Below, piece by piece: positions 1,283 through 24,681 of a stretch of 64,000 bases of DNA (position 1 is the first letter of the stretch; every line of letters begins with the position of its first letter). The notes below the pieces were generated by a model that had not been told where the DNA came from, made no database searches, and was given only the letters and a program-made list of their open reading frames with translations. Source of the stretch: Perna viridis (taxonomy: Eukaryota); the NCBI GenBank assembly GCA_037379345.1, contig CM074521.1:33380704-33444703 (forward strand). Direction: 5' to 3'. A program made the position numbers and the translations under genes.

Positions 1283-4200
1283 CTAAAGGTAAAGATAAAA
1301 ATTAGTTAGAAACACTCTAATTGGTAACAAGGTAAAAAGATAGAAATAACAGAACAACAACAACAACTCATAAGATCTCAAATAAAAGTCTATGTAAATT
1401 TATGTTTGGTCTAATGCTGAGTAAAAGATTTTTTTTATCCCAGCTCCACTCCTCGCATGCCTTAAGACACTATCATCCCACAATCAATAACAGATAATCT
1501 GAAATAGAACAACACCGTGGAACACCATTATCACATACTCACTGTACTTAAGTTACACTGTAATGTTATCAATATATATTCCATTCACATGGTTAAATTA
1601 CATGAGTTTTAAGCTTGGCAGAGAGTATTCCTGTTTCTGTAATATCTGTTCATTCTTATTCATACAAACCTTGTCAAATTCAAATTTACTTATTTTATTT
1701 CACTAGGAAATTATCTCTAACAATATTTTTTTCTTAACAAGGACTGAATTTTATAAAAATTCATCAGGACTGCACAAAGAGAGGAGGATAAAAAAGTTTG
1801 ATAGACCATAGCATAGAAAAAATAAATATATGTAGGAGTTATAATTGCGTCAAATAGGGAGCACACAAAATTAGAAAAACAAAATTTCATCAAAATCTCT
1901 TCAGCAGTTTAGGAAGAGTGGTGCTTACAAAAAATAAGACAGATGAAAGCACAGACAAAAAAGACAAACAGGGTGATTCCTATATACCCCAAATTTTGCT
2001 TGCAGGGATAATAAAGATTCAGATGAGCAGACAAACAGAGATAGAGACACATATAATAAAAGCAAATCGTCTTCCATTGAACAGAAAGAGAAATATCTTC
2101 AATACATGTACATACCAGATAGCATGGTCCTCCAAACAGTAACCAGAATGGAAAACAGCAGAGGACACAAACTGGATGTACACAACAGTCCAACGGTGTA
2201 GAAGAGTTGTGTATATAGATACTCAGGTTCCCATTATCACTGTTGGAGCGACTGTCACAGAAAGTGACCTCAGCATCAACAATACCACTATACCACTGTC
2301 TGATACACTGACCAAATCCAATCTGTCAACAAATAACTTATGAATTTCAAACAAATAATGAGATGATTATTAATAGTATACCAATAGGAAAAATCTTTTC
2401 TTTTTTTGTTGGGGGTGGAGGGGGGGGGTCAGCAAGGATCAAGTCATTAAGTTCTAATTCTCCTGACCACACTTCAGGTGAACATATGAGAATGAAATGG
2501 TACCCATCTTCTATATCATTTTTACAAAAAAAAAATATTTAATCTATATTATTTCTTACAATGCCATTAAGTCTTCCATTTCTATACCTACCTAACCACA
2601 TTTTTGTTGTACATGTTTTGTAATTATTAAGATTTATACCTTAATACAAAACTTCTTTCCATCTTGCATGTATTGCATTGCCTCAGACAGTCTTCGGGAT
2701 AGTACCTCTTTTATGGCAAAGTGTTGGGTATTCACCAAGATAGCAAACTCATCTGTGTATTAAAATATGAATGAATATTAGTTCTTTTCTATCCTGAATA
2801 GCTTTTATTGACAATTTCTTTTTTTCAGAGTTCTTTTAAAGTGGTAGTATTAATGAAAAATAGGGATAAAACATTAAAAAAGAGCAATAACTCCAATATG
2901 GCATGAACCCTATATACTAAAATGGGATTGTGCTAAAAACCAAACTGAGCCTGTATTTTATACCAATACACAACTGTGCTGGGGTTTGAATAAAATAAAC
3001 TAGACATTGCCCCTAACAACACACAATTAATATTGGACACAAAATTTATGTTGATAAACTAGGCATTTTTGAAAAACAATTTTGCTGCTATATCTTATTA
3101 GCTTTTGATGTTGACAACACAATGACAGAAAATGTCAGTAAATTAACTTAAACCATAAATTCCTAACAATATGCACATCCCTATATGGTCATTTAACACA
3201 CCATCAAGTTTTATGACATTAAGGAGGATTTGCAGACAACGGATCAGACCAACTTTGTCTGAAAAATTCCTACATGTAAGTTCAACAGCAGTCACTTCTA
3301 AAATTATTGTCCAACCATAAATTCCTGACAGTATGCACATCTCCACATGGTTAAATTACATCACACAAAGTTTCATAACAATGCTGCAAGCTGCTAAGTA
3401 AATAGTTTGGATAGGCTTAAAACAAAATTTATGGCTCAAGTGGAAGGTTTACACATATTGTAAACATGTTTCTTATCAGGCGTAACCATAGTTAAATCAG
3501 TTTTTATTTACAGTGACTCAACCAAGATAAGGACATATTAATAATTACTAATAAGGACAATAACACAATAAAGAAGTTGTTCTTTAACTTTGACCAAACG
3601 GAGAATTTTATTGGTTTTATCATAAGCCTTATCTCACTAGACAATTGAAAGTTTGTAAAGTTTTTCAAGCAGCATTTTCTAAATTTCTAAAATACATATT
3701 TAAAAACTGCCCTCTATTTGCTTCCCCACAAATCAAATAAATTAGATTAACCTTTCCACTTCTTTCTAACTTTCAATACAACATAATGATCAGTTCTTTC
3801 ATGTTCTACTTTTGCACGGAACAACAGGGGCATTCTGAGAAGATCCCTGGTCAGTCTGTGCACATCTTCAACAGTTTCTACCTTCAGCTCACTATAACAA
3901 GAAAATGTAGAAACCTCAATTTTTTTTCAAATGATTTGTTAAGTTTGGAAAGCAGACTTCAAGTGTGGGAATGTTAATCTTCATTTAGACTTTTCCTGTG
4001 TAAACCTAGAATTTTGAAAAGTCCTGGAAAACTGGAAGGTAATAAAAAATGTTTTGTTTTCTGAAACAAAAGTTTAGAGAATTTTAACTCAGTTGTCGTG
4101 TATTTAAAAACTTCACTTCTTAAGAATCAGGCAAAATGTGTATATGGTGTGGCACATGAAGAAAAAAAAATACTGAGATTTGATTGCAAGTGTTTATACC

Positions 4201-6438
4201 TCATAACGTTTAACATCCAGAAATAACCATCAAAGTGCCTTTTTTATGATATTGATAGGTCAAATTTAGTTGAAATGCCCCTTGAAAAAATAATGGGAAA
4301 ATTTAAGTATAAGCAGTAAATACATATCTACGTCACAGATCCTTCAGGACAAACTTAAAAAGCTTTTTTGGTTCTTATCTAGATGTTTCGAATATACTTG
4401 AGACAAAAATGATCAAACTGAGAAAAATGTTGCACCATCAATTGCCTGATTCTTACACAGAAAAGTACTTTATCTGGTAGCTGTATATCATACTTTAAAT
4501 CTCATCTTTTATTCAGAGACCAAAAGTTTTCATATAAAAAAAAATTAAAACAACTGATATTCAAATTATTGCACAAAAACCATGTCTACAGATGACAACC
4601 ACACTTATGGAAATGGCAACGGCAGCCCAATACCATGATGGAGTCGAGGGACCATATTCCCTGGGTTCTCATTCTTGCTTATAGTACTTTTTTTTCTTCC
4701 AAATTAAGGGCTGAACGGTAAATTAAAAACAGTACTAAATGATGTGATTTTGCTTTTAAATTTTCAGTCTGAAACCCATACCTGCCAACCTATGGAAGGG
4801 CAAATGAGCAAGACCTCAAGCATTCCAGCATAAAAAAGCCAGTCATAACGTGTGACGACATTTTTCTCTGGGTATTTTTAACTACAGAAAAATTCAATAG
4901 TAATTTTAATGCATGCTGTGACATTAATACAATAAAGAGAATTTAAACTCATTGTGTAATCATTTAAAGCTTGGATTGTAATCTGATGTAGCAGCTTCAG
5001 CTGCTTTTATCGCTGATAAAGAGGGTCTATATTCAAAACAGTTGTATGTCTGGTTTATCTTACAGGCTAGTAGTGCACATAGAGTGTGTCTTTCAGAATC
5101 TGCATTTGCGTTTGGTAAAATGAGTAGGGCTTTGACCAGTCTAGCAAAGACACTAAATCTTGTACTGTCAGTTATTGTATCTTCCACTAATCCCATTTTT
5201 CCCAAAAAAATAGTTCAATGTCATTTTCTAATTCCCAAGATTAGGAGTATTTGCAAAGGAATTTTTTCTATTTAGAATAACTTTCATCATTGGAAGTAGC
5301 AGGTCCTGACACAGAACGTTTCCGTCTTTCTAACATGTTCCCAAGTGAATGATGAAACATTTCATTCTACAAACAACTGACCCAATTTGCTTTAATTACT
5401 ATAAACACACACATGTGTTAATAATCTGTCAATGTCAACTGCTGTCCAGAGGCATTTTTTTTTGTTCACAAAATCAATTAACATTGATTGGATGAAAAAG
5501 TTTGAGATTCTCAAATGATTTTGATCTTTCTAAAATTCAGCACCATTCTGGAAGATTTCAGGTGAGAAGGGGGATTTGCGGGACCCAAGCAGGAGGTCTA
5601 GTCCTTGCAGGAGATGGGGCACAATTTTGCAGGGGGTTCCAGCCGAATTCGGGAGACTTGGAAAGTATGGAAACCATATCACCCTGTTCAAAGGATTGAA
5701 TCTGATATTTGTTTTCATAATAGATTTCGTAGTTCAATTTAAGAAAAATAATGAGCCTGTCTGGTGACTGCATTGCCATTGCAAGAACAGTTTCTACCTT
5801 TGGTTTTTTTTTCTTTTTTCTTCTATTTTTGGAGCTGTGTGACCAAATTGCTTTTGTAGGATACATTTAACGTGTATTTTTCTTTGATTTTGTGGCAAAA
5901 TAGGGTATTTTGTTTAAGATGTAAAAAACGTATTTTACAAGTACACTGCGATAGTGCAACGTTGTTTACAAGGACAGAAGTTGAATTCCAGAATTGGTCT
6001 ATTTCTTTTACAGGGATAAGCAGTCACAAAGTTGGCCATGGCTACCAGATTTCCAGCTGGACTATCAAACTTTCGGATAAAACAGTTGAATATATAGAAA
6101 ATATTAAACAAAATATGGTCTGGACTACCAACTTAAATTTCATAATTTTCATCCCTGTTTTATCAAATTCTAAAATTTTGAAATTAACAATTAAAGTTCA
6201 CAACTGATACATGTACTGGTAAGCCCTGCCCCATGTTAGAATACTAAATTTCTTACTGTAATGATAGTCCTCGGCCAGCCATGTCAAACACCAAGTCAGA
6301 ATGGTAATTCTGTCCTGGGCGAACAGCAGGTTCTATCAAATTATACATAATCTGGGGATTATTTTCAAATTGGGACCATAACACAGCCGTGAATGGTGGC
6401 AATGTCCTAAGGTTTAAATTGGCTGTCTGGACTGCCAT
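995..6438 (-). CDS. Five-exon gene, 309-aa uncharacterised protein with a Cys-rich hydrophobic segment and a Pro/Tyr/Gln-rich C-terminal tail; join(6438..6257,3891..3752,2752..2640,2322..2116,1282..995)
   Basis: All four introns are GT-AG (donors gtaaga, gttaat, gtataa, gtatgt; acceptors ttatag, acacag, tgacag, ctttag). Phases 2/1/0/0 splice into one stop-free 930-nt ORF: MAVQTANLNL...GLSLHELKVETV...KKWKDEFAIL...KFCIKIGFGQC...DCCVHPVCVLCCFPFWLLFGGPCYLVNRKVKY...PPAYPYPVPPPYNAI*. Start context is ggcgATGG. Minus-strand AATAAA lies downstream at about 561-566 and 478-483. Confidence 0.88.
2116..2322 (-). CDS. Coding exon 4 of the 309-aa gene (Cys-rich hydrophobic segment)
   Basis: tgacag|ATT GGA ... 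TAT CTG|gtatgt; 207 nt, phase 0/0. Confidence 0.9.
2640..2752 (-). CDS. Coding exon 3 of the 309-aa gene
   Basis: acacag|AT GAG TTT ... ATT AAG|gtataa; 113 nt, phase matches both neighbours. Confidence 0.88.
3145..3380. repeat. Two degenerate units about 160 bp apart, resembling bivalve Helentron-associated / Cg170-like satellite monomers
   Basis: aaccataaattcct(a/g)aca(a/g)tatgcacatc...atggt...aagttt occurs at about 3151 and about 3313. The family assignment is recalled, not searched. Confidence 0.45.
3752..3891 (-). CDS. Coding exon 2 of the 309-aa gene
   Basis: ttatag|T GAG CTG ... TGG AAA G|gttaat; 140 nt, open frame ELKVETVEDVHRLTRDLLRMPLLFRAKVEHERTDHYVVLKVRKKWK. Confidence 0.88.
4777..5669 (-). 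mobile_element. Internally deleted hAT-superfamily DNA transposon in intron 1
   Basis: Imperfect TIRs CATACCTGCCAAC (4777) and CTTGGAAAGTATG (ends 5669), flanked by a GAAACC direct repeat (4771-4776, 5670-5675). ORF 4960..5205 has hAT C-terminal dimerisation-like LLILPNANADSER...TLCALL...AAEAATSDYN. Confidence 0.8.
6257..6438 (-). CDS. Coding exon 1 of the 309-aa gene
   Basis: ATG at 6438; ends TTA CA|gtaaga (phase 2). Confidence 0.8.
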
Positions 6439-7799
6439 CGCCGATTTCAATTTTTCTGTCTTTCACAACAATCCACTGGAATTTCCGCGAAGTGTAGTGC
6501 AAAACTAAGAAACGAAATCAAAACGCTTAAAAACGAAACGCAATCAATTTACATCTACTTATATTCGGTATAGTAAGTGTAAATATATAAGTAATATGAT
6601 TTTATATGTTCCCGAAGGAAGCGTTTATGGTTGTATAATCAACTTGGTGCTGTATACTTGTGGCAAGAAAAAGCATCAATATCCGGTTTGTACCTTCATT
6701 TTCAGGAGCTGAAAACAGCATAATGGCAGCTTCATTTGCGTGTACTTGTATTTATCCTGCAAAGGACGCATTTTCTGCCAATATTGCCTGTCCAATATTG
6801 TAAATCGATATTGGGCAGTTATTTTTGGAATAACGTGGGAACTACTTTTTGCCTTGGAGTTGGAAACTGTAATTAAGCAATATGGCGGCCTCCATGTTGA
6901 TGTGGCTTAGAAAATCAGTCATACATGTTGTACGTTTTCTGCATGTAATATTTCTCCTCATTGGAAATTAAAAAGTTTGAATATTGAAATTGTGACTTTT
7001 TTATGTGATGTATAAATAAATGGTGTCTAGGTATTTTTTGTGCTATTTTGTATGTATAACCCCATGCTGGTCTATCTCTCTCGTTCCGCATTCCACTGCA
7101 GACGATCGGTAGTCGTCCACAAATGTCTTCCGACAGTGAAACGGAGCGTGCATCTCAATTAAAGATGGACTGGTCGCCGACGTTGAATTTTCTGAATCTT
7201 AATGTTTACATGCATCCACCGTCGAATTCCATGCAGGAATGACTCGTTTCGTGACGTCATGATACAGTAAAAGCGTTTGACAAGACTTGTTGACATTTTT
7301 ATCCAGGTGTAACACAGTTACCTTTTTCATTTATAGTATTGTGATATGTGGTTTTCACGATATAAAGTTTTTAAAAAAAATCATAAATTTATGAACTCAT
7401 TTAAGCGCCCATTGTCAACAATTTCTTCAGAAAAGTGCGTCGCCGGTTATGCTAACAAGAAATAACTCAGCCGTGCAACCGTTGTGTTGTATATGAATCA
7501 TTTTTTGGCATGGAATTACAAAGAAAATATTTTTCAAAATACTTTTTAAGTTATTTACATTTATAAAAATATTTAGGTTACAAATACAGAAAGCATTTTC
7601 TCCCGAATGTATTATTTTAAAAGGAATTGGCAGACTCGTACGGATTTGCAAACCCATACTGTCGCCAAGATATTACTTCGCGGTGTTGTTAGAGGGGCGA
7701 TAGGGGTACTTTCTGTAAACCGCATAAAAAGCGATTTTACATAGAATTGACTTAAACCAATATTTTGTTTTTATTTGCAGGATAAACACAATACAAAAC

Positions 7800-7924
7800 C
7801 AGTGTCCTAGCATATCGGAAATATGGGTTACTCGGCGCGAAACGGGGGTAAATCGCTCGGCAAAGCCTTGCGAAACCCCCGGTTCTTAGCCTCGTACCCA
7901 TATTTCCGATATGCTAGGACACTG
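7800..7924. repeat. 125-bp palindromic (hairpin) element
   Basis: Perfect 29-bp inverted repeat CAGTGTCCTAGCATATCGGAAATATGGGT (7800-7828 / 7896-7924) enclosing nested stems cgggggt/acccccg, tcgc/gcga and ggc-aaa-gcc. Confidence 0.9.
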
Positions 7925-8688
7925 ATATATGCGATTGAGAGTCAAACTAGTCTCGGAAAATATTTCGCTAGTTTCGATAATTAAATACAAATCGAATCAT
8001 ACCTTTTCCAGAATAGGGTTGGTCATAACAGTCTGCAGTATGGCATCCAAATAATTACGAATATTGCGTAATCAATAATATGGAGTAGGCATTGACTAAA
8101 TCAGCGAGCACGTGTACTGTCTGTGTGGGATTCGTCAGAATAATAAAAACATTACAAAAATGAAAAAGGGTGGGGGTCGGACGAAATTTTTTGTTTCGCT
8201 AGTGCAATATTTCTATTTAAATTTCAAAGGCAATCGAAATCAATATTTTTATTTGAAAATCTGTCTTGTTAAATAATGGGGATTTTTTTTCAATGAATGA
8301 GCAAGGAGCTAATTTTTGGCTGCTTGAAACGAGTGACTACGAAACAATTTTTTCCCAAAAAAATTTCCAACCCCATTCTCCTTTTCCCATAGCCTTTTAA
8401 ATAGTCGATAGCTATGTAACACTTGTTATATATGACGATTAGGATATTGATAATCAACAGTTTACTGATAAAACTCTATACACCCATGAAAAGATGATAA
8501 ACATTTCCCAGTGACATTCTGTCGTTCTATTGTTTAAAAAGTACCTACCGCCGTATCAGAGATTTCTTGTTATATACCATGTAGATTGATGATGTAATTT
8601 AGTGTAGAATAAAATGCTGATCTAAACAGACGCCTTCGATCTATACGCAATCCTGTTATGATATAAATTGTAAGGAAAACATAACAAC

Positions 8689-9085
8689 ACTTCGCCATAC
8701 TTTACAATTTTTATTAAAAGCGTCTCTAGTAACATCCTTTTCAGTTTTAGCCGGTCAGATCAATTTGTACAGATACCGGAAATATTACAGTTCTCCACGA
8801 TTGGTGGGAAAATTTTACACCATGTGACGTAAACAAAATTCAGACGCAACTGACAGCTGGAAACAAGAAAATGATTGCCTTTCCTATCTTAGAAAAGCTA
8901 TGCTTCAATTTGAATAATACAATCGGAGTTGTATTTTTTCCCAGGCAGGTTAGGTTCTTGACAACAGCAGAGATCCACGTGTTTCCCGAAGTATTTTACA
9001 ACATCACATTCACTTCTATAAATAAGTAAAAAAAAAGTTATTGAAAACTATCAGAAATGATTAATTTATTTTTACTGAAACGTAA
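8689..9085. repeat. Unclassified interspersed repeat, copy 1 (second copy at about 21315-21760)
   Basis: Colinear similarity: acttcgccatactt...taccggaaatattacagttctccacg...caactgacagctg...tacaatcggagtt...ggttaggttcttgac. Confidence 0.8.
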
Positions 9086-21885: not shown

Positions 21886-23552
21886 CACATTTAAAGCAAA
21901 TTTGGAAAATCACGGAATATAGAAGATTAACAAAAATGGTGGATATAAAACATATTTTTTAAATGGCACCAGATTATTTGAAATACTGTAACACCGGCAA
22001 CCTGGTGCAGAGTCGGAACACTCAGGAGTATCGGTTCACACTGAAAAATAGGGTTTGTTAGGATGATATATATATGTATGTATATAGGGTCAAATAAGAA
22101 ACTCGAAGGCATATAAAGTAACTAAACATTTCATTGTATAAACTGGAATACTACAGGTAGCTGCACACACACTGGTAATGGACAATATGCATGGCGGTTG
22201 ACGACCTGGAAAACTGGAACCTTGGTCTTACAAGTATCAATAGTAAAATCGTATCAAAATCAATACAAAAAACTCAGTTAAATCCTATTGTCAGGCTTGG
22301 TTAAGTTATCGAGTGTAAATGTCACAACGCAACAATGAATAACAAAGGATGAATGCAACTTTAAATATGTACGGGGTGCTTCTTCAAAGGAGTACATTAC
22401 ACCATAATACAACAATTCTGTCCCCCTCACCGACGCTAGTCACCGGTCACCTATCGAGCACCAGCAGAAGCAGTCTGCACAGTCACCGAGTCACATGGTA
22501 CCCAAATGTGATAAAAGTAAATTTTAATGTTCTTTATATTATAAATAATAACCTTTCCAGCTATGCTTAGTCTATCAAACATAGCTTTCTATATTTTTAT
22601 TTCCAACCCATTGATGACATTGCTGTTGTCCCCTTCTCTTCCAAAACAAGTGAATTTATACTGACTTCTTAGTCAATCCTAAGCAGCGTAGCGAATTTCC
22701 ACCAATCAGAAATTACGTCATATAGATAACGGGATCTTCACGATGCAAATAATGACGTCACCATATTTATTGACGCTTTTTTGCGCATAGTCAACAACAC
22801 AATATTTTATGAGTGTTTAACCACATTTATATTTATGCATACAGGACTAAAGTTTGCAATAAATGCAAGCTTTACAAAGAGTAATCAAGGGAACCAAGGT
22901 TATAGCGGTAATCAAAAGAATGTAATCCAGGGACAGAAAACAGGCATACACAACAAAGAACATAAAGTAACTAAAATCATAAATAAAAAGTAACAAACGC
23001 AAATGAGCAACTCGGACTCCACTAAAAACAGGGAGCATGGACCAGGTGCACCTTTAGGGTAAGCGTCCTTTGCTTTTCTAGAAACACCCGCCGAGTTGCT
23101 CGTAAAAAGTCAAGTCCAAGGTAGACGAAAGAGGAGAGGAAAACTATGACCCGTTGAATAAATCAGTTTTCATGGCGCCGATAGATACACCATAACGATC
23201 CACGAGTTCATGATGACGACCATAAAACTTCTGTAGTGATGACTTCAATCTTGTAGCAACATAACCCTGTTCCAGAAGCCAATTTGTTAGAGTTCTAGCG
23301 CGATCCAAAGAGTCTGCGTAGTTTCGGAAAGCTCTGGATAACATATGAGTTGCGATATGAACACTCCATACGCAGGTGCTAAAGGGATGTTGCACAGATG
23401 AAAGGAAAGTTGACAATTCTGAATGAAAAGTCATCACGTTTGTCGTAAAGTGTGGTCAATAGTTTTCCTTTACCATCGATTTCTAAGTGTAGGTCAAGAT
23501 GTGAGGCTGACTTCACAGTGTCTGTAGTATCCTTTATCTCAAGTTCTTTGGG

Positions 23553-24065
23553 CCCCGTGCAGGTCCGGGTGTTAAAAGAATAGGCCTGCAGCAGCGCTAA
23601 GCTTGTCGTATAAGGCGACTAAATAGTGCTCAGAAACCTAGCCGGGGGCTAGGCGCTCTGCCCACAGAGCAACTGGGATGTGTGCCCCAGGTGGTGGAAT
23701 GGGGTACCCCTGGCGTGTTACATGCTGGGGTTGTCAGGCTATAATACGGAAAACCTGACCGCAAACCATAGTGGTGCACCGTGTTGGGAAAGATGCCACG
23801 TTCCTCGCACATTAAAGAACCCTGCTGTGGTATTCGATAGGAGTAGGAACCTTTGCGCTCCGCCACTGGAGGCTAAATTGCCCGACCTTACCCATCCCCC
23901 CTTTTTCCAGTGGCAATCAAAATTTGTCGACCCTATTATCCTTGTGACCCATCCTTTTTTTTTCATTTCATGTTCATTTTATCATCCATTTCATGTTCAT
24001 TGTCTGAATATAGCTGAAATATTGCTGCTCGGACGTTAAACCCCAACAAACAATAACAACAACAA
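23553..24065 (+). mobile_element. SINE-like non-autonomous retroelement with a structured non-tRNA head, a V-domain-like core and a (CAA)n tail
   Basis: TSD of up to 15 bp, CTCAAGTTCTTTGGG (23538-23552, 24066-24080). Core motif gcacattaaagaaccc. 3' end atagctgaaatattgct...gacgttaaac followed by caa repeats. No coding capacity. Confidence 0.88.
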
Positions 24066-24443
24066 CTCAAGTTCTTTGGGGTAGATGCAATGTATCAAAT
24101 CCCCGAAATTAGGATTCTTTAAAGATAATACGTCACTATATAGCGGAAACTGAGATTAAAGGATCTAGCCAAACGATATTATTTCTTTCGGATCAGATCA
24201 GCTATAAAATCAGTCTCATAAGAGTGAATGAATATCCTAAGCGACATCACGCGAGAAGTAACGAGAGTGATTAATCACATTTACTTCTTGAACTGTTTTC
24301 GACGCGAACAGATCATCTTATCTGTCCGCTCTTCATTATAGAGTTTTTGCGCCGCACGTGGACTTCATTTCATGAATTTTAATTCGTGTCGCTTGATATT
24401 AAGGTAAGTTATTTTATTTCTTTTGTTTATTTGGTTTGAGTAT

Positions 24444-24681
24444 AACCCGAGGAGGGTTATTTTGCAATTTCTTTAATTGTTTAAAACCCGAAAAGGGTTG
24501 TTTCCTTTCTTAATTTTTCAACTCGAGGAGGGTTAGTGTTTCATTAATTTTTATGCTTTAACCCTAGGAGGGTTAGTATTTCGTTGGTGTATATTTTAAC
24601 ACGAGAAGGGTTAATTTTTGTTACTATATCATTTTAGCCGAGGAGGGTTGGTTTTCATATGTTTTAAGCCCGAGGAGGGTT
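24444..24681 (+). repeat. Array of seven short hairpin repeats (consensus AACCC-GAGGA-GGGTT) with variable T-rich spacers
   Basis: Copies start at 24444, 24485, 24520, 24560, 24598, 24636 and 24667 (period 31-41 nt). Confidence 0.9.

Follow-up and report, generated by a model that had tools for sequence, protein, structure and literature searches.

What does the head of a young SINE do when that element carries no tRNA? The question is raised by one insertion in the window, the whole stretch of 64,000 nucleotides of Perna viridis DNA analysed here. The original prediction described an element bounded by target-site duplications whose head can fold into a pseudoknot, and named that head a candidate ribozyme or other functional RNA. 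Our analysis retains the broader part of this claim, a functional structured RNA, which is backed by the covariation of three helices (PK1, P2 and PK2); the ribozyme is the weaker branch in view of the helix order, the Rfam comparison and the site of the same fold in viral 3' UTRs. The features are collected in Table 1.

Table 1. Features of the SINE and of its predicted RNA head (positions in the window; all on the plus strand).
Feature	Position	Strand	Remark
SINE, complete and young, LP-SINE type, 514 bp	23552..24065	+	15-bp target duplication, genome copies
Target-site duplication, left copy, 15 bp	23538..23552	+	final G doubles as element base 1
Target-site duplication, right copy	24066..24080	+	identical to 23538-52
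Conserved structured RNA head: two predicted pseudoknots and T-loop-type hairpin	23552..23630	+	
P1	23554..23569	+	23554-57 with 23566-69; first loop base U23558 conserved, mostly unpaired
PK1, 7 bp	23559..23589	+	23559-65 with 23583-89; covariation
Linker	23570..23582	+	ends in conserved AGAATA (23577-82)
P2, short stem immediately 3' of PK1	23590..23603	+	23590-92 with 23601-03; RNAalifold and pair counts
PK2	23593..23630	+	P2 loop 23593-99 with 23624-30; duplex energy
P3 hairpin, 4 bp, 7-nt loop U-A-W-R-A-G-G, then conserved TAA	23605..23622	+	putative T-loop, by pattern
Two family-specific hairpins	23637..23670	+	outside the common motif
Body segment resembling Nin/Tgr_1 SINE motif	23814..23828	+	likeness by eye to the PMC4758252 supplement (sections covered)
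Tail like the 3' end of intact Nimb/I-type LINE L487	24000..24065	+	closes with CAAA/CAA repeats

The 15-bp duplication on which the element was originally delimited is perfect; the start had been placed at 23553, and the true first base is G23552, which is shared with the duplication. The empty site (23537 joined to 24066) is present in contigs from four of four public sequencing runs. The source genome holds 382 candidates of this SINE, and the 40 that were scored have heads of 98-100% identity. Target duplications of 7-15 bp, together with a CAAA tail, were found at 23 of 30 fetched loci, a set biased to flanks resembling those of the query. Among 29 copies selected by their tails, 26 start within 2 nt of G23552 behind unrelated upstream flanks, one starts 5 nt in and two start far inside; the median identity of these 29 to the window copy is 0.979. 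Given the uniform starts and the high identity, the SINE is young and complete, not a truncated relic of a tRNA-headed element. ARAGORN detected no tRNA in the SINE, no B box within one mismatch occurs in it, and the sole A-box-like 11-mer (one mismatch) lies at 23683, behind the head, in agreement with the earlier statement that the head has no recognisable A or B boxes. The possibility that the segment is the interior of a 5'-truncated tRNA-derived SINE, raised with the original prediction itself, is thus ruled out.

SINEs of this kind have been described. LP-SINEs are known from scallops, oysters, abalone and periwinkle, and their initial ~70 bp correspond to the 5' termini of the LINEs Nimb-17_LMi, I-3_DR and RTE-9_CPB; a promoter role was proposed for this head, with Pr77 drawn as a parallel (Matetovici et al. 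2016, PMC4758252; this and the other papers are cited for the sections covered). Judged by its sequence the window SINE is of LP-SINE type, and its head type is already published as a sequence (PMC4758252): it has a Nimb-17 5'-domain head and no tRNA, with core and stems as in the scallop copies when compared by eye, variable target duplications and a tandem-repeat tail. The scallop copies (Fig. S2 of that paper, 'Nimb-17 homology') share this core and, on inspection by eye, each of the four pairings, whereas the window family has a body of its own. Neither the fold nor a viral occurrence is given in the sections of PMC4758252 covered.

The motif also heads a LINE. An intact element with endonuclease, reverse transcriptase and RNase H domains and a 1238-aa ORF2 (L487) begins with it (69.9 bits), and the 3' end of this LINE resembles the SINE tail. 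The partner LINE of the SINE was not found in the source genome, where one active Nimb-type family took up all the matches listed in both protein searches; the head is absent from seven of seven fetched copies of that family, and its tail match is weaker than that of L487. Searches of the source genome for other head families returned only the present SINE (30 of 30 places; the best 30 of 121; the best 30 of 258; 2 of 2). The active Nimb-type LINEs (L480-L486, e.g. G000:C9:2999650-3005730), with many intact 1247-aa ORF2 copies, have a different 5' end, consisting of a C-rich/G-rich stem, an inner hairpin and a possible loop pairing, with no Rfam match; candidates for this end are an HDV-like ribozyme and a sister pseudoknot. 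L487 (G001:C4:516000-528000, 2905-9040; ORF1 and ORF2) lies ~1.1 kb from bacterial DsrE-like genes in a bivalve gill-symbiont assembly, with no target duplication beside its tail and with downstream DNA that is non-bacterial in look and contains a gap; it is more likely host DNA joined in assembly than a true insertion. In GTDB, five of eight pattern hits score 33-70 bits, and we infer that these hits are animal DNA within symbiont or soil assemblies. A planctomycete MAG contig, for instance, starts with a motif-bearing repeat (L459:99-182) whose downstream sequence resembles a metagenome copy (L172) and which is probably soil-animal DNA. An animal-derived contig holds two heads in tandem (L133:1372-1517), the first without the P2 3' strand.

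The head is predicted to form two adjoining H-type pseudoknots and a hairpin with a T-loop-type loop, an architecture richer than the one first described. The individual pairings put forward originally are present in the sequence: CCCG (23554-57) with CGGG (23566-69) in 4 of 4 positions, its loop 23558-65 with 23583-90 in 8 of 8, the GTCG/CGAC hairpin (23605-08 with 23616-19) in 4 of 4, and the two downstream hairpins in 7 of 7 (23637-43 with 23647-53) and 6 of 6 (23655-60 with 23665-70). The pairing of AGCGCTA with TAGTGCT (7 of 7) was likewise correct, but it had been read as closing an internal loop and is better explained as a second pseudoknot, PK2, formed on the loop of P2, a covarying stem that had been overlooked. 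A seven-nucleotide loop closed by G-C, with U at its first position, a purine at its fourth and A at its fifth, is the T-loop pattern. The downstream hairpins were seen only in the present SINE family. The first of them (23637-23653) exists in two subfamily forms, in which an extra C is matched by an extra G (75 and 23 copies; 98 of 102 concordant, 4 discordant), and is, to judge from these matched changes, under structural constraint within the family. When the 41-nt segment was dinucleotide-shuffled 5000 times, a 4-bp hairpin with a 7-bp loop helix appeared in 7 of the shuffles. The folding energy of 23550-23690 is ordinary (z = -1.30; 25 of 200 shuffles equally good), and the support for the fold is therefore covariation and not stability.

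Covariation was assessed on alignments with one row per family, chosen by eye from metagenome, GTDB and viral hits; a pattern scan of metagenomes gave at least 122 stretches, which look like repeats of animal hosts. Pair counts were made at fixed anchors picked by eye, three PK1 rows that are out of register being retained, and the permutation tests treat the families as unrelated, ignoring kinship. On these terms 105 of the 126 PK1 pairs are canonical over 18 families, whereas permuting the strands gives 72.8 ± 6.0 (0 of 20000 permutations as high); the animal-derived rows alone give 60 of 77 (268 of 20000) and the viral rows 45 of 49 (4 of 20000). For P2, which RNAalifold discovered in 13 non-viral rows, 54 of the 66 pairs are canonical over 22 families (permuted 37.4 ± 3.3; 0 of 20000), and 20 of 21 in the viral rows. 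Eight pairs of PK1 and P2 are changed on both sides (alignment A1), and all slid controls are lower. For PK2, the summed duplex energy over 21 families is -129.8, against -83.7 ± 9.3 permuted, the helix being weak in six of the 21, four of which are among the seven viral rows. Compensatory changes are thus found in three helices over 18-22 families. The absence of covariation among homologues, which was to count against the original prediction, was not what we observed, and the compensation that it foresaw is visible in published scallop copies (PMC4758252) and in other families. P1 and P3 are almost invariant and so contribute little covariation. In all 21 rows the P3 loop is U-A-W-R-A-G-G; most of these rows were selected by that very pattern, while the seven viral rows came from a pattern with a free P3 loop. 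Among single metagenome copies, 40 of 120 pass a strict pseudoknot parse; many are decayed, rearranged or register-shifted. In the comparison with Rfam advised earlier, neither the head (to E = 10) nor the motif of three viral loci matched a family.

The same fold occurs in viruses. Scans of IMG/VR found the whole motif in seven distinct virus records, which a model built from non-viral rows scores at 33-67 bits, against a maximum of 24 for 52 other loci of the viral collection; as all these loci were preselected by pattern, their E-values are not blind. Three records encode tombus-type polymerases, one a toti-type polymerase and one a tetravirus-type capsid; the remaining two are a record with a polymerase-like ORF without a Pfam match and a large DNA virus. 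Exact look-up gave the names Hubei tombus-like virus 21, Shuangao toti-like virus and invertebrate iridescent virus 6. The motif follows the last stop codon by 4-198 nt, on the coding strand, in six of six RNA-virus records, and in invertebrate iridescent virus 6 it lies ~120 nt after the stop of gene 206R and ~150 nt before the next ATG. All seven copies are thus placed after a stop codon or between genes, and two of the seven records (L217 and L228) have a second copy in tandem. Looser viral scans gave 136 further loci with, among the matches listed, one strong one, of the same sequence as L220, and no new member; the loose patterns yield mostly chance matches. The best match in a phage collection spans 27% of the head and is no member. 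No relation was found between 206R and the last ORF of L227, and the planthopper SINE reported in invertebrate iridescent virus 6 lies elsewhere (157.8-158.1 kb, the motif being at ~92.1 kb). 206R is reported to be the top-expressed gene of a related cricket virus over its coding part (preprint 10.64898/2026.05.19.726264).

We tentatively propose, at somewhat less than even chances, that the head is an exoribonuclease-resistant RNA (xrRNA) that stops Xrn-type 5'-to-3' decay and so fixes the 5' end of the element RNA. In the retroelements, transcription would start at a host promoter and read through into the element; trimming of this RNA would stop 6 nt upstream of the conserved loop U and leave a stable RNA with a fixed 5' end, whose Nimb-type tail would then recruit a LINE reverse transcriptase. 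Viral RNA protected in this way would persist as a short non-coding 3' RNA. The conserved part of three repeat families (n = 26, 24 and 16) starts 6 nt upstream of this U, suggesting that the head itself sets the 5' end. The proposal is favoured by the fact that one mechanism covers both the retroelement and the viral settings, and by the 3' UTR position and tandem copies of the viral motifs, since xrRNAs sit in 3' UTRs and are often in tandem (PMC8374639). Such RNAs are further characterised by a ring of 15-16 nt that surrounds the 5' end (PMC8374639). With slightly more reserve, we consider that the head may represent a new xrRNA class, a double pseudoknot with a T-loop, and a module that moves between animal retrotransposons and +ssRNA, dsRNA and dsDNA viruses.

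Comparison with known xrRNAs gives partial likenesses. Class 3 xrRNAs of dianthoviruses, poleroviruses and ST9a have a 5' P1, at the base of which Xrn1 halts, a long pseudoknot and a T-loop (PMC12397905). The head resembles them in a P1 at the 5' boundary, an AG-containing linker before a long loop pseudoknot, a putative T-loop and a site after a stop codon. Their T-loop, however, lies inside the P1/P2 apical loop and takes a bulge (J1/2) from P1/P2, whereas the T-loop-type hairpin of the head is 3' of the first pseudoknot and within the second; with neither that arrangement nor a sequence or Rfam match, membership of class 3 was rejected. The flavivirus classes 1 and 2, which have a three-way junction with a 5' pseudoknot, were also rejected, the supported helices forming no three-way junction. 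The coremin xrRNA, modelled as an H-type pseudoknot that requires a downstream hairpin (PMC10321173), is similar in that model, in its required hairpin and in a strongly conserved core of ~20 nt; it differs in sequence and stem sizes, and its conserved hairpin is 5', whereas that of the head is 3'. Several points count against a nuclease block. The connectivity of the head is unlike that of each xrRNA class compared, four plain H-type pseudoknots failed to stall Xrn1 (PMC10321173), and the three repeat families mostly have a purine as base 1, which is what one would expect of a transcription start. The weakness of PK2 in the viral rows and the modest share of metagenome copies passing the strict parse also weigh against it, and the reported high expression of 206R in the related cricket virus is not explained by a 3' block alone.

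A further objection leads to the main alternative, which we judge rather unlikely: the helix order of the head is that of the T-shaped translation enhancer of TCV. The head would then be a ribosome-binding, tRNA-shaped translation element. With the same limited probability it would serve the viruses as a 3' cap-independent enhancer, assist ORF1 translation in the LINEs, and tether SINE RNA to ribosomes translating LINE RNA. The TCV structure, a 3' CITE that binds 60S/80S and enhances translation, consists of coaxially stacked double pseudoknots and a hairpin (PMC5336357), and in our mapping the strand order P1, PK1, P1', PK1', P2, PK2, P2', P3, P3', PK2' falls on psi3/H4a, H4b/psi2 and H5. The head indeed has two adjoining H-type pseudoknots with a hairpin before the last strand, the element of TCV lies in the 3' UTR of tombus-type viruses, and three viral records of the motif have tombus-type polymerases. 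The T-loop type of the loop, the replacement of tRNA heads by LP heads in Saccostrea SINEs (PMC4758252) and the expression of 206R point in the same direction. However, P3 has only 4 bp, far below the long H5 (-21.8 kcal/mol; PMC5336357), and the head is about 80 nt long against about 100 nt. It has no positive sequence likeness to the TCV structure and no Rfam CITE match, and it is also found at the 5' ends of retroelements, where a fixed 5' end would need a second mechanism; the weak PK2 of four viral rows counts here as well.

A fixed 5' end would be provided by a new self-cleaving ribozyme cutting just 5' of P1, which would free the element from read-through transcripts as the HDV-like ribozyme does in L1Tc; we regard this as improbable. 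Beside the uniform start of the copies, a compact double pseudoknot with invariant unpaired bases would suit a ribozyme, and there are precedents in L1Tc (PMC4758252) and in the UTRs of RNA viruses, some in tandem (PMC13725137). The ~77-nt 5' signature Pr77 of L1Tc is, like the head, common to unlike LINEs and their short derivatives (PMC4758252), but the head does not have the HDV helix order. As originally stated, the fold has neither a full HDV nor a full pistol topology; nor does its helix order fit the consensus order of twister, and no Rfam match supports any of them. Two traits of the head are reminiscent of HDV-like ribozymes: a 7-bp helix that starts with a G behind an unpaired U, and a CUAA word. 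The nested order of HDV-like ribozymes is P1-P2-P3-L3-P3'-P1'-P1.1-P4-J4/2-P2'. In most rows the strands of the 7-bp helix are 12-17 nt apart, too few for P2, P3 and L3, and an HDV-like ribozyme was rejected; pistol and twister were rejected as well, their conserved cores and helix orders being absent and Rfam giving no match to E = 10. A permuted twister or hammerhead was also rejected, non-circular twister permutations having been found nowhere in PMC10085705 (sections covered). The viral copies have no conserved base at their 5' boundary, and a cut at the U/G step finds no counterpart, at most one of 29 copies starting there. Moreover, self-cleavage in a 3' UTR would deprive a viral genome of its 3' terminus, and the viral ribozymes of PMC13725137 are mostly upstream of ORFs.

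The published proposal for LP-SINEs, an internal DNA promoter for which the fold would be secondary or a second function as in Pr77, is in our estimate quite improbable as an account of the head. It would agree with the location at the extreme 5' end, the fixed offset and the purine at base 1 in three families, and with a P3 hairpin loop two mismatches away from a B box, in addition to the proposal itself (PMC4758252). Against it, three helices vary freely in sequence while their pairing is kept, and the six RNA-virus records, which have no DNA stage, keep the fold with compensated helices. A role common to the elements and the RNA viruses must be exerted at the RNA level, so a DNA promoter cannot be the shared function; it is possible as an added function in the retroelements.

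The 5' terminus of LINEs and the 3' terminus of viruses are the usual sites of polymerase or packaging signals, which we count in favour of such a signal (for the LINE RNP, or for RdRp or capsid) or of a decoy for a host antiviral protein, as is the role of the TCV structure as an RdRp scaffold (PMC5336357), but the idea is very unlikely: the active Nimb-type LINE of the source genome lacks the head, and a near-identical 18-nt core is used by unrelated polymerases, those of Nimb, I and RTE LINEs (PMC4758252) and of tombus-like, toti-like and DNA viruses, a breadth that suggests a partner supplied by the host. Combinations of nuclease-blocking, translation, ribozyme, promoter and polymerase or decoy roles are possible.

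In the full-text literature, a coverage outside which subscription journals and Repbase reports fall, we found, among the papers listed, none describing the fold or its presence in viruses, and the word ribozyme is absent from the sections covered of two later papers on mollusc retroposons (PMC11481361 and PMC11203168). SINEs of this type are known; what appears to be new is the fold, its second pseudoknot and the distribution among viruses. Whichever role is correct, selection acts on one RNA fold of 80 nt in two settings, the 5' ends of retrotransposons and the 3' UTRs of unrelated viruses, and the question left by the LP-SINE paper (PMC4758252), the role of the head, becomes testable in vitro. 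If Xrn1 is blocked, the head would answer the stated search for xrRNAs in cellular RNA (PMC8374639), as one encoded by animal genomes and carried by Nimb, I and RTE LINEs and many SINEs. The SINE 5' end would then be made by nuclease trimming, without a Pol III promoter or a ribozyme, a third route to a defined retroelement 5' end beside promoters and ribozymes. If instead the head binds ribosomes, it would be a minimal T-shaped element, a parallel to Alu RNA on its route to the LINE protein.

Four of the 30 top copies (L006, L012, L013 and L028) are inserted in copies of the same SINE, one of them in the AGAATAGG linker of the head. The window copy is itself nested in another high-copy repeat, its flanks (23040-23550 and 24081-24200) being covered by many divergent contigs. 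Further downstream, at positions 24440-24680 of the window, a short CCCGAGGAGGGTT-like unit recurs about seven times at irregular spacing.
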